Of a DNA stretch of 64,000 bases, positions 1-3,000 are shown piece after piece (the stretch's first letter is position 1; every line of letters begins with the position of its first letter). Origin of the DNA: Escherichia coli 042 (lineage in GTDB: Bacteria > Pseudomonadota > Gammaproteobacteria > Enterobacterales > Enterobacteriaceae); assembly GCF_000027125.1 (NCBI RefSeq), contig NC_017627.1, one strand, 5' to 3'. Made by a program: the position numbers.

Positions 1-3000
1 GTGCAGGATGGTGTGACTGATCTTCAACAAACGTATTACCGCCAGGTAAAGAACCCGAATCCGGTGTTTACACCCCGTGAAGGTGCAGGAACGCTGAAGT
101 TCTGCGAAAAACTGATGGAAAAGGCGGTGGGCTTCACCTCCCGTTTTGATTTCGCCATTCATGTGGCGCATGCCCGTTCCCGTGGTCTGCGTCGGCGCAT
201 GCCACCGGTGCTGCGTCGACGGGCTATTGATGCGCTGCTGCAGGGGCTGTGTTTCCACTATGACCCGCTGGCCAACCGCGTCCAGTGTTCCATCACCACA
301 CTGGCCATTGAGTGCGGACTGGCGACAGAGTCCGGTGCAGGAAAACTCTCCATCACCCGGGCCACCCGGGCCCTGACGTTCCTGTCAGAGCTGGGACTGA
401 TTACCTACCAGACGGAATATGACCCGCTTATCGGGTGCTACATTCCGACCGATATCACGTTCACACTGGCGCTGTTTGCCGCCCTTGATGTGTCTGAGGA
501 TGCAGTGGCAGCTGCGCGCCGCAGTCGTGTTGAATGGGAAAACAGACAGCGCAAAAAGCAGGGGCTGGATACCCTGGGTATGGATGAACTGATAGCGAAA
601 GCCTGGCGTTTTGTCCGTGAGCGTTTCCGCAGTTACCAGACAGAGCTTAAGTCCCGGGGAATAAAGCGTGCGCGTGCGCGTCGTGATGCGAACAGGGAAC
701 GTCAGGATATCGTCACCCTGGTGAAACGGCAGCTGACGCGTGAAATCTCGGAAGGGCGCTTTACTGCCAGTCGTGAGGCGGTAAAACGCGAAGTGGAGCG
801 TCGTGTGAAGGAGCGCATGATTCTGTCACGTAACCGTAATTACAGCCGGCTGGCCACAGCTTCCCCCTGAAAGTGACCTCCTCAGAATAATCCGGCACGC
901 GCCGGAGGCATCCGCACGTCTGAAGCCCGCCAGTGAACAAAAAAACAGCACTACATCCCAAAAAAACAACCTCATCATCCACTGAAAAGGTGGGCACCTA
1001 CGTTACCAATACTGGCTTAATGGCTACATACGGCGGTCAGTTTACGCTTACCATCAGTGTCATGTCCAAACCAGACGGGTTAACGGCAGCAAAGAACCTT
1101 GCAGAAACGTTCGAGCATTATAACGAATGGCATCCGCATAGTGCGTTGGGTTATCGCTCGCCACGGGAATATCTACGGCAGCAGGCCAGTAATGGATTAA
1201 GTGATAACAGGTGTCTGGAAATATAGGGGCAAATCCAAAGGCCGTCTGGTGATAGCGGATCAAGAACAGCAATTAACTATTGCTATAATAATATCTATTA
1301 TTTTTTTTGTTTTGATTTATCATTTAATTTTTTATAGATAAAATAACTTTTTGGTTTTTAATATAGTTTCATATGTAACGGAGTTCAAGGTAATAAATGA
1401 AAGTAGTTTCTGATAGTTTTAATGACATGCATAAACGCCGTTATTTTAATGACACAATGGATATTATTAATTATAATCGAAAAACAATAAGATATACTGA
1501 CATAATTTTTTACTTTAGGACTCTGAAAGAAATTAGATTAAAATATCCATTCAAAGAATTAGAATCATTATTTGATCCTTTAAATATTTATCCTTTTTAC
1601 TATTTTATGCCATTTCTATTTATAAGTGATCTCCATGATAAAGGACAGTATATTGAAAGGATAAGGTACGTCGGTATTATATCAACGCTTATAGCTCGAA
1701 GAGCAATCCTCACAGACCTCTTTGTCGATGAACAGTACGAGCAACTAATTTCAAGAAACATGGGGGATTTAAAAAAAGAATATCTTGGGTATTATTTGCA
1801 AATAATAGATGTGGAAATTAATAATATTGCCTCAAAAATATTTATAGAGCCTGGTAGTTTCTATGCTTTTTATAATCGTCGTTTTAACGAGTATGTTAAC
1901 ACCATGTTAATGGAAAAGGATATTTCACCATTGATAGGCATGGATGAGAAGGCGTTTAAAAAGTACGCAGTTGGAAAATCTATACTGCATTTACTTGTTA
2001 GCGATATGGTTCTTTATATTATAAAAAAACAAGAGTTAACTCATCAGTTTGATAATATGATGAAAAGCTTTATTATGTATCTTACCCTTCAGGATGATGT
2101 TCTCGATATAATGGAAGACATACAAAAGCAGCAACCATCGCATTTCTATCCTTGGATTTCTGATGGTAAGATCATTGAAAGTTTTGATGAAAATGTTGAA
2201 AAAGCTGTGCTCCTTAAGTTTTATCTCGGTGGAGGTATTGAAAGATGCGAGGATCTTATTAATAAATATGTTGAAGATATCATTACTGCTGTAAAAAAAA
2301 CAAATCATCCTCTAAAATCATGGTTAGAAGTTATTGAAAGAATGTCATTAAAAACAAAAGACAAATTGGATTCATTTAAAGCAGTTAGAGATGAGTTACA
2401 TTTTTTTCTGTCACAACAGGGGTAATTTATGGAGAATGTTATTTTAATTGACCATAATGATTGTGAAACGGGGATTGCCGAAAAATTATACACCCACAAA
2501 AAAGGTATTTTACATCGGGCTGTTTCTGTTTATATATGTAATAGCGATGGAAAATTATTGTTACAGCAAAGAGCACTTGGAAAATATCATTCTCCCGGCC
2601 TTTGGAGCAATACCTCTTGTACACATCCCTTCCCGGGAGAATCGAATTTATCTGCAGCTAACAGAAGATTAAGGGAGGAAATGGGGATAGAATGCCCCTT
2701 ATCTAAACTATTAAAGATCTACTATAATGTTTATGTCGGCGGTGATTTAACAGAACATGAGATTGCACATATTTTCTACGGTATTAGTGATGATGAACCA
2801 GTTTTAAATAGTTTGGAAGCTATGAGTTATAAATATGTTTCCTTGACAGAGTTAAGTTCTGAAATAAAATTCAATAACGATGCTTTTTCTCGTTGGTTCG
2901 TCTATTGTTTCCCATATATTAAAAATGCTTTCCTAAATGAGAGTAATTATACCAATTTATTGATTTAGTATATGATGGTGCATTTGAGGGTTATGTATTC

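Follow-up and report, generated by a model that had tools for sequence, protein, structure and literature searches.

AggR is the master virulence regulator of the enteroaggregative Escherichia coli (EAEC) plasmid pAA2. It belongs to the AraC/XylS-family activators, in the Rns/CfaD/VirF subgroup. Rns/CfaD of ETEC, VirF of Shigella and AggR alike use asymmetric A/T-rich sites ending in TATC, one of which adjoins or overlaps the -35 region, and the first two regulators are partly interchangeable with AggR; Rns-type promoters have often been described as carrying extra upstream or downstream sites, whereas at the AggR fimbrial promoters one correctly placed site is enough. The AggR-binding site was described as WWWWWWWTATC (W7TATC), followed after 21-23 bp by a weak -10 hexamer, a consensus and spacing rule obtained with promoter deletions, point mutations and primer extension and by moving a site into the melR promoter; in the melR transplants, a spacing of 20 bp (DAM20 construct) gave no induction and 22 bp was the optimum (Yasir et al. 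2018, Mol Microbiol 111:534, PMC6392122). AggR recognises an asymmetric 11-bp site, which is active only 21-23 bp (best 22) upstream of a weak -10 hexamer and, at that spacing, overlaps the -35 region; RNA polymerase may be recruited through an inferred contact with sigma-70 domain 4. This is similar to class II AraC/XylS activation, where the site overlaps the -35 region and a weak promoter is compensated, with a sigma-70 domain 4 contact; unlike for class II activators, the sigma contact of AggR is a proposal. In the AggR promoter papers covered, direct in vitro binding is cited for the aggR promoter only (Morin et al. 2010) and none is reported for the aafD, aatP and ORF3 sites, while a literature search for AggR ChIP-seq found none.

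The stretch analysed here, 64,000 nucleotides of Escherichia coli 042 contig NC_017627.1 (the window), is plasmid pAA2 of EAEC 042, since each of the 21 promoter strings of 75 nt listed by Yasir et al. (2018, Table 1) has an exact match in it. It is thus the same DNA as that of the published EAEC AggR promoters (Morin et al. 2010; Yasir et al. 2018; Abdelwahab et al. 2021, Virulence 12:57), with no biological difference: those papers already contain the ORF3 candidate sites as well as the operators and -10 elements of aafD and aatP. The regulator gene and one of the three units considered here are the following.

41080-41877, minus strand: aggR, encoding a 265-aa regulator whose translation matches the AggR of strain 042 printed in the Abdelwahab supplement
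1397-2968, plus strand: ORF3 (1397-2425, class 1 isoprenoid biosynthesis enzyme) followed by idi (2429-2968), a unit activated by AggR, according to ORF calls, annotation and RNA-seq

The original prediction had placed ORF3/idi, aat and aaf under one regulator on the basis of a recurring W-rich run ending in TATC. Published RNA-seq bears this out, as AggR activates all three units: in the delta-aggR mutant the log2 fold changes are -4.54 for ORF3 (EC042_pAA003), -4.13 for idi (pAA004) and -5.52 for aatP, and range between -4.1 and -5.6 over pAA003, pAA004, pAA005, pAA005A and aatP, while aafD is likewise strongly AggR-dependent. The likeness of the motif to the AggR consensus was also correctly noted. 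The recurring motif is very probably the AggR operator as already published, and so an ordinary, explained feature; the consensus, the spacing rule and the control of these pAA2 units by AggR are already known. Published experiments establish that all three units depend on AggR, and likewise the operators and -10 elements of aafD and aatP. The general interpretation was right; at the level of single sites, only the aafD call was right among three, the aatP coordinates being about 20 bp off the published operator and the ORF3 call being the second-choice candidate, and nothing in it was new. The finding therefore adds little, since operators, rule and regulon are published and partly proven by mutagenesis.

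The expected arrangement is complete at aafD.

38413-38423, plus strand: aafD AggR-binding site GTTTATTTATC, identical to the functional site reported by Yasir et al. (2018) and containing the third predicted site
38446-38451, plus strand: aafD -10 hexamer TAGCAT, 22 bp beyond the AggR site, with the 65C substitution falling on A38447

The predicted string TTTATTTATC is present at 38414-38423 and is the validated operator, with 75 nt to the ATG at 38499, inside the proposed 65-90 bp. The site has one mismatch to W7TATC and lies 22 bp from TAGCAT, in agreement with consensus and spacing; the substitutions 92C/90C (window T38420 and T38422) greatly decreased AggR induction, and the melR promoter became AggR-dependent once it received this site (Yasir et al. 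2018). Primer extension in the same study placed the transcript starts at window 38456 and 38458, as obtained by converting fragment positions 56 and 54 with position 1 set at 38511. The layout runs from the site at 38413-38423, through 22 bp, to TAGCAT and the starts at 38456/38458. The distance to the start codon is not a conserved feature: in the pAA2 AggR promoters of Table 1 it varies from 48 to 303 bp (Yasir et al. 2018), and what is conserved is the 21-23 bp between the AggR site and the -10 hexamer.

The motif proposed upstream of aatP is present as a string, but the proven operator is a different copy, located further downstream.

4391-4398, plus strand: predicted aatP motif TTATTATC, 18-21 bp upstream of the proven operator
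4409-4419, plus strand: characterised aatP AggR-binding site AGTTATATATC (Table 1 of Yasir et al. 2018; mutations in Abdelwahab et al. 2021)
4441-4446, plus strand: aatP -10 hexamer TACATT, 21 bp beyond the AggR site; p91C/p89C correspond to A4442 and A4444

Induction was much reduced by the p117C/p115C substitutions, at window 4416 and 4418 (Abdelwahab et al. 2021), and the mutation numbering fits TATC at 4416-4419 and TACATT at 4441-4446 exactly when position 1 is set at 4532, a choice that follows from the 13 bp of coding DNA included in aatP100, with the aatP ATG at 4520 (PGAP annotation of a 99.9% identical plasmid). The 4409-4419 site thus agrees with the consensus, with the spacing (21 bp to TACATT) and, in the published mutational data, with loss of induction, and the aatP layout consists of AGTTATATATC at 4409-4419, 21 bp and TACATT. 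The upstream copy behaves differently. Extended to 11 bp it reads CGATTATTATC, a borderline match with two mismatches to the consensus, and the hexamers 21-23 bp downstream of it (CCTTAG, CTTAGT and TTAGTT) all lack A at position 2. A weight matrix from eight sites is circular for the sites of the window; in a matrix built without aafD and aatP, 4391-4398 ranked 1131 of 127,980 positions. The copy also fails a composite scan that combines a site, 21-23 bp and a -10 hexamer of at least 4/6. In the published four-strain alignment, from which the upstream variation was taken (metagenome loci gave one further variant only), 4391-4398 is degenerate in strain E42 (GGTTCTTATC). The 4409-4419 site is kept in pAA-EA11 as AATTATATATC. 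Judging from fragment lengths, the fragment aatP98 (144 bp) corresponds to 4389-4532 and so spans 4391-4398; within these deduced limits the upstream copy was intact in a fragment that lost induction upon mutation of 4416/4418, and it was therefore insufficient alone. With the fragment limits taken in this way, 4391-4398 is a by-stander match, unable to sustain induction alone. Its distance to the start codon also departs from the proposed 65-90 bp, as 121 nt separate it from the annotated ATG at 4520, and the 88 nt that would fit are obtained only from the longest-ORF start, GTG 4487.

Such by-standers raise the question of whether the motif copies arose by chance in AT-rich DNA of horizontal origin and are uninformative on regulation. 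The loose motif, at least four W followed by TATC, occurs 121 times in the window, with 1.9-3.4 per kb per strand in aat and ORF3/idi coding DNA, which is equally AT-rich, and it ends 65-90 nt upstream of 5/25 mechanically called ORFs with AT-rich upstream DNA; for these reasons it is not diagnostic alone. The strict W7TATC, to which none of the three predicted strings is a perfect match, has 35 matches in the window, whereas global shuffles give 6.6 +/- 2.5 and shuffles in 500-bp blocks 14.2 +/- 3.6, and at least 12 of the 35 fall within aat and ORF3 coding DNA. Relaxed matches number 292. The matrix built without aafD and aatP ranks the real sites at only 69 (aafD) and 117 (aatP), with about 100 positions scoring equally well, so that the matrix alone cannot call AggR sites. 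Berger (2016) likewise ascribed to AT richness the 16 AggR sites predicted in and around aat. An apparent enrichment of TATC itself was dropped, since it is 1.2-fold over the trinucleotide Markov expectation and several other 4-mers are higher.

Against chance stand the position and the function of the copies. The sense-strand zones of 150 nt upstream of eight AggR-activated lead genes contain 6.7 loose motifs per kb, with 8 on the sense strand versus 1 antisense; a motif just as common off promoters had been named as grounds for rejecting the prediction, and in AT-rich coding DNA the loose motif is frequent. The composite scan gives 40 matches versus 18.1 +/- 4.1 in shuffles (about 2.2-fold, z about 5) and recovers ORF3 site a, pAA005A, aatP 4409, afaB, aafD and aar. 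Mutagenesis shows function for properly positioned copies at aafD, aatP, afaB, aap, aar and aggR, the last four being located as follows.

26512-26522, minus strand: characterised AggR site of the afaB promoter, TTTTTATTATC
41951-41961, minus strand: characterised AggR site of the aggR promoter, AAAAATATATC
43169-43179, minus strand: characterised AggR site of the aap promoter, TATTTTTTATC
46175-46185, plus strand: AggR site of the aar promoter, ATTATTCTATC, characterised in 2021

Chance is already refuted for aafD and for aatP 4409-4419 by published point mutations and stands for 4391-4398; as an account of the motif in general it is very unlikely. A W-rich-TATC match alone is no evidence for an AggR site in this AT-rich DNA, where placement relative to the -10 hexamer decides function. 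The low GC content of the AggR-regulated modules (31-38%) would also suit another explanation, in which H-NS nucleates on the A/T tracts and AggR is mainly an anti-silencer rather than a fixed-position recruiter of RNA polymerase; at some promoters H-NS is indeed counteracted by Rns and VirF, which are related to AggR. However, aafD and afaB are strongly AggR-activated in an hns null host, and a single site moved to the unrelated melR promoter works with a sharp 21-23 bp optimum, which makes this scarcely credible.

At ORF3/idi two candidate sites have been published, and their closest relative in the window is the upstream region of EC042_pAA005A.

1285-1295, plus strand: ORF3 site a, ATAATAATATC, a perfect consensus match and the first EC042_pAA003 row of Table 1; the more likely candidate
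1311-1321, plus strand: ORF3 site b, TTTGATTTATC, with one mismatch, corresponding to the predicted motif and to the second EC042_pAA003 row of Table 1
1318-1323, plus strand: probable ORF3 -10 hexamer TATCAT (5/6), 22 bp from site a, whose first four bases are the predicted TATC
3601-3611, minus strand: paralogous AggR site ATAATAATATC upstream of EC042_pAA005A (Table 1), with TAGCAT 22 bp downstream

The predicted string TTTTGATTTATC is present at 1310-1321, its start having been placed 2 nt early at 1308, and it lies 75 nt from the ATG at 1397, within the proposed range. As an AggR operator it does coincide with a published candidate, the less likely of the two, and its TATC most probably falls within the -10 hexamer. 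A literature search found no experimental analysis of the individual orf3 promoter elements; in Fig. S5E of Abdelwahab et al. (2021), a later alignment by the same authors, the AggR site marked at ORF3 is site a, and not site b. Site a is the same in 21/21 distinct orthologous variants, always 21-22 bp from a 5/6 hexamer TAT[C/T]AT. Since the orthologues diverged by just 1-7%, this invariance weighs little by itself, and the case rests on a few indels and one recurrent substitution. The TATC of site b is changed to TATT in 3/21 variants, and these natural C1321T variants destroy site b while the -10 hexamer is still 5/6 (TATTAT). Plasmids NZ_OP242267.1 and CP056265.1 are examples with TATT. 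The paralogue points in the same direction: 1263-1334 forms an inverted repeat with 3562-3633, joining the ORF3 and pAA005A upstream regions, and in the alignment the TAGCAT of the paralogue falls in the same columns as the ORF3 TATCAT, with site a retained at 22 bp. EC042_pAA005A is itself AggR-activated (delta-aggR log2 fold change -5.56, RNA-seq).

Site b might nevertheless be the functional operator, with a -10 hexamer TAACTT at 1344-1349 and a start near 1356, whether by itself or with the site-a promoter in tandem. Table 1 of Yasir et al. (2018) includes it among the possible promoters, in 042 it lies 22 bp from TAACTT and 75 bp from the ATG, and its matrix rank of 83 is near those of aafD and aatP, which were left out of the matrix; TAACTT matches at 3/6, and 3/6 hexamers are also found at the characterised aggR (CATTCT) and aap (TAGCCT) promoters. 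Yet this spacing is poorly kept among the orthologues, where a hexamer starting with TA lies within 21-23 bp of site b in only three of 21 variants; owing to a 1-2-bp indel downstream of 1321, it lies in most variants at 20 bp, the distance at which DAM20 was not activated. At the position of site b the paralogue has TAGC, and a good -10 hexamer is first reached 26 bp away. Site a passes the composite scan, and site b fails it at the -10 threshold of 4/6. Site b is thus an unlikely operator, and the functional one among the candidate sites is probably site a, as judged from sequence comparison. The ORF3/idi layout would then be ATAATAATATC at 1285-1295, 22 bp, and TATCAT at 1318-1323, with the TATC of the original prediction providing -10 bases rather than an AggR contact and with an AggR-dependent start expected near 1329-1331. 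In this way, the comparative data predict the true site among the two published candidates at the promoter of orf3/orf4, a biofilm-associated isoprenoid module.

Differential RNA-seq of the O104:H4 pAA in LB showed no transcript start at the predicted AggR-dependent ORF3 or aatP promoters. The dRNA-seq and 5′ RACE starts of the ORF3 and aatP homologues correspond to window 1062 and 4320; as they belong to other, upstream promoters, they do not discriminate between the candidates. A perfect extended -10 element, TGCTATAAT, is located upstream of ORF3 at 1281-1289, and in O104:H4 this element, in its paralogous copy, has a mapped start equivalent to window 3600 (minus strand), or 1296 at the ORF3 copy. 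The region upstream of ORF3 might hold three overlapping promoters (the extended -10, site-a/TATCAT and site-b promoters), a quite unlikely arrangement, where AggR at 1285-1295 would occlude the extended -10 promoter while activating the site-a promoter, and TATC at 1318-1321 could double as part of the -10 hexamer and as a second AggR contact. If this were true, AggR would alter the 5′ UTR and would not be a mere on-switch of the operon.

As for the fimbrial side of the plasmid, a megablast search of the 6-kb aafD-aap region against E. coli genomes was dominated by IS matches. At aap, the O104:H4 dRNA-seq start TSS_1994 corresponds to window 43134, as the aap promoter predicts.

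The W-rich run ending in TATC, which the original prediction had likened to an AggR consensus, equals the published operator motif, WWWWWWWTATC, with a spacing of 21-23 bp to the -10 hexamer downstream; this rule is based on nested deletions, point mutations, primer extension and melR promoter transplantation (Yasir et al. 2018, PMC6392122). In the transplant series there was no induction at a spacing of 20 bp, fourfold induction at 21 bp, eightfold at 22 bp and twofold at 23 bp; in the model proposed by the same authors, AggR on its site overlaps the -35 region, and its contact with domain 4 of sigma-70 is a proposal (PMC6392122). 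All 21 promoter strings (75 nt) of their Table 1 were found exactly in the window, which indicates that it is the AggR-regulated half of pAA2 of EAEC 042, or has the same sequence as pAA2 in each of the 21 promoter regions published. The first 6 kb share 99.9% identity with an AAF/II plasmid whose annotation includes ORF3 (as a class 1 isoprenoid biosynthesis enzyme), idi and aatP. The single regulator that had been suggested for ORF3/idi, aat and aaf is therefore already established, since RNA-seq of delta-aggR versus wild type gave log2 fold changes of -4.54 for pAA003 (ORF3), -4.13 for pAA004 (idi), -5.34 for pAA005, -5.56 for pAA005A and -5.52 for aatP, and the largest responders to aggR deletion include aafD; aafD and afaB are still activated by AggR in an hns null host. 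Both the motif and the co-regulation of these operons are already known.

The predicted strings are TTTTGATTTATC at 1310-1321 upstream of ORF3 (first placed 2 nt too early, at 1308), TTATTATC at 4391-4398 upstream of aatP and TTTATTTATC at 38414-38423 upstream of aafD. The similar distance of about 65-90 bp to the start codon holds for ORF3 (ATG 1397) and aafD (ATG 38499), 75 nt each, and fails for aatP, whose annotated ATG (4520) lies 121 nt away; only with a mechanical GTG at 4487 as the start does the distance become 88 nt. What is conserved is the spacing between the AggR site and the -10 hexamer, whereas the distance to the start codon ranges between 48 and 303 bp in Table 1 (PMC6392122). 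The characterised and candidate sites are as follows.

1285-1295: ORF3 site a, ATAATAATATC, candidate of Table 1 (PMC6392122), 22 bp from TATCAT (1318-1323)
1311-1321: ORF3 site b, TTTGATTTATC, candidate of Table 1 (PMC6392122), 22 bp from TAACTT (1344-1349)
4409-4419: characterised AggR site of aatP, AGTTATATATC, 21 bp from the -10 hexamer TACATT (4441-4446), with the ATG 100 bp away
38413-38423: functional AggR site of aafD, GTTTATTTATC, 22 bp from the -10 hexamer TAGCAT (38446-38451)

Of the three calls, the aafD one was correct and lies inside the proven operator: in the published fragment numbering position 1 is 38511, so that the 92C/90C mutations fall on T38420 and T38422 and the 65C mutation on A38447, and the two starts seen by primer extension lie at 38456 and 38458. 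The aatP call was about 20 bp off, and the ORF3 one probably marks a -10 element.

The presence of the motif by itself is not evidence of an operator. A loose form (TATC preceded by four or more W) is present 121 times in the window versus 59 in block shuffles preserving local composition, TATC alone being just 1.2-fold above trinucleotide expectation; its density is 1.9-3.4 per kb per strand inside the equally AT-rich aatPABCD and ORF3/idi coding DNA and 6.7 per kb on the sense strand of the 150 nt preceding eight AggR-activated lead genes. Of the 25 mechanical ORFs whose upstream DNA is AT-rich, 5 have such a motif ending 65-90 nt before the start. Equal frequency in non-promoter AT-rich DNA, named beforehand as an observation that would refute the prediction, was thus nearly what was found for this loose form. 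The strict consensus has 35 matches, versus 6.6 +/- 2.5 in global and 14.2 +/- 3.6 in block shuffles, and a third or more of the 35 fall within aat coding DNA. With a position weight matrix of six AggR sites, aafD and aatP excluded, the true operators ranked 69th (aafD) and 117th (aatP) among 127,980 scored positions. A composite scan (site with no more than two mismatches, spacing of 21-23 bp, -10 hexamer matching at least 4/6 with A2 and T6) gave 40 matches versus 18.1 +/- 4.1 in shuffles; it picked up ORF3 site a, pAA005A, aatP 4409, afaB, aafD and aar, and in the window it did not recover the originally predicted ORF3 and aatP sites. The densest AggR-consensus region of the window is 4001-8000, the aat operon, with 56 matches of at most two mismatches, ten of them perfect, on both strands; this density tracks the GC content of 32-34%, not promoters, and is in line with the 16 sites that Berger et al. 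2016 (PMC5066232) obtained with FIMO.

At aatP both promoter elements were confirmed by mutation, p117C/p115C for the site and p91C/p89C for the -10 hexamer (Abdelwahab et al. 2021, PMC7781526). As 13 bp of aatP100 are coding, position 1 is 4532 and the mutated bases are T4416, T4418, A4442 and A4444, exactly as the assignment to 4409-4419 predicts. Published fragment lengths exclude linkers (433 = 13 + 420; 454 = 13 + 441), so the 144-bp aatP98 should span 4389-4532, TTATTATC included, which would thus stay intact in the aatP98 mutant that lost most induction. No usable -10 hexamer lies 21-23 bp downstream of TTATTATC, which ranks 1131st with the matrix and is degenerate in strain E42; pAA-EA11 conserves both copies. 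The 4391-4398 copy is a bystander some 20 bp upstream of the real operator.

The ORF3 motif is site b; site a and TATCAT are marked in the 2021 supplement (PMC7781526). Orthologues of the ORF3 upstream region, from plasmids and from metagenome contigs found with the first 29 coding nt as the seed rather than with the promoter, gave 21 distinct variants. Site a is invariant in all of them, 22 or 21 bp (T8 or T7 run) from TAT[C/T]AT, which scores 5/6 as a -10 hexamer throughout, and the paralogous copy driving pAA005A also has site a, followed at 22 bp by TAGCAT in the alignment columns of TATCAT. The alternative, site b, has the 22-bp spacing in 042 itself; its TATC is TATT in three variants (L008/L016, L020 and L021), which keep the -10 reading as TATTAT, and after a 1-2-bp indel downstream of 1321 the sole TA-starting hexamer in most variants lies at 20 bp, outside the 21-23 bp range. 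Site a is thus the likely real candidate, in a set whose overall divergence is low (1-7%), and in that case the predicted TATC is probably the first four bases of the ORF3 -10 hexamer.

Primary 5′ ends of the O104:H4 pAA plasmid in LB (Berger et al. 2016, PMC5066232) were mapped onto the window. For aap, the start TSS_1994 maps to 43134 (-), in agreement with the AggR promoter prediction. The weak aatP start gTSS_70088 maps to 4320 (+), 200 nt before the ATG and with both TATC copies downstream of it, and the 5′ RACE start of the ORF3 homologue to 1062 (+), inside an IS remnant and 335 nt upstream of the start codon. No start is reported in these data for the predicted AggR-dependent ORF3 and aatP promoters; the mapped starts neither favour nor exclude site a or site b, and point to additional promoters, possibly AggR-independent. 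As the -10 TAATAT (4308-4313) is not preceded by a W7TATC at 21-23 bp, the start at 4320 probably belongs to a basal, AggR-independent promoter.

A perfect extended -10, TGCTATAAT, overlaps site a at 1281-1289 (+) in the ORF3 copy and at 3607-3615 (-) in the pAA005A copy, where the O104:H4 primary start TSS_10680 lies 7 nt downstream (3600, minus); in the ORF3 copy this corresponds to 1296. With AggR on site a, this element and its start site would be covered. TGNTATAAT occurs eight times in the window versus 2.9 expected.

The paralogue is inverted and spans the ORF3 promoter and first 80 coding nt (1263-1334 with 3562-3633; 1397-1476 with 3316-3395; 85% and 78% complementary), forming EC042_pAA005A/pAA005 and driving these AggR-activated genes; the ORF3-idi module is therefore bracketed by two inward-facing AggR-type promoters. 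Just outside each copy an IS-remnant end is repeated in direct orientation (1149-1237 with 3688-3776). Matches at two or more places per record in all 40 plasmid matches listed (of 56) suggest that the duplication is widespread. Upstream homology of ORF3 among plasmids (L003-L025) starts abruptly at AACAGCAAT (about 1265), some 20 bp upstream of site a, so the promoter travels with the module; beyond this junction (1240-1265) there are at least four different flanks, some with a 26-nt insert, and in one an IS3-type remnant end (GGCAAATCCA) is fused directly to the ORF3 module.

The regulator gene is also in the window.

41877-41080, minus strand: aggR, encoding the 265-aa AggR of strain 042

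Inside its coding region five composite matches cluster at 41408-41502 on both strands, and some of these matches appear in the published Table 1 (PMC6392122) as candidate promoters of EC042_pAA051, which lies downstream.
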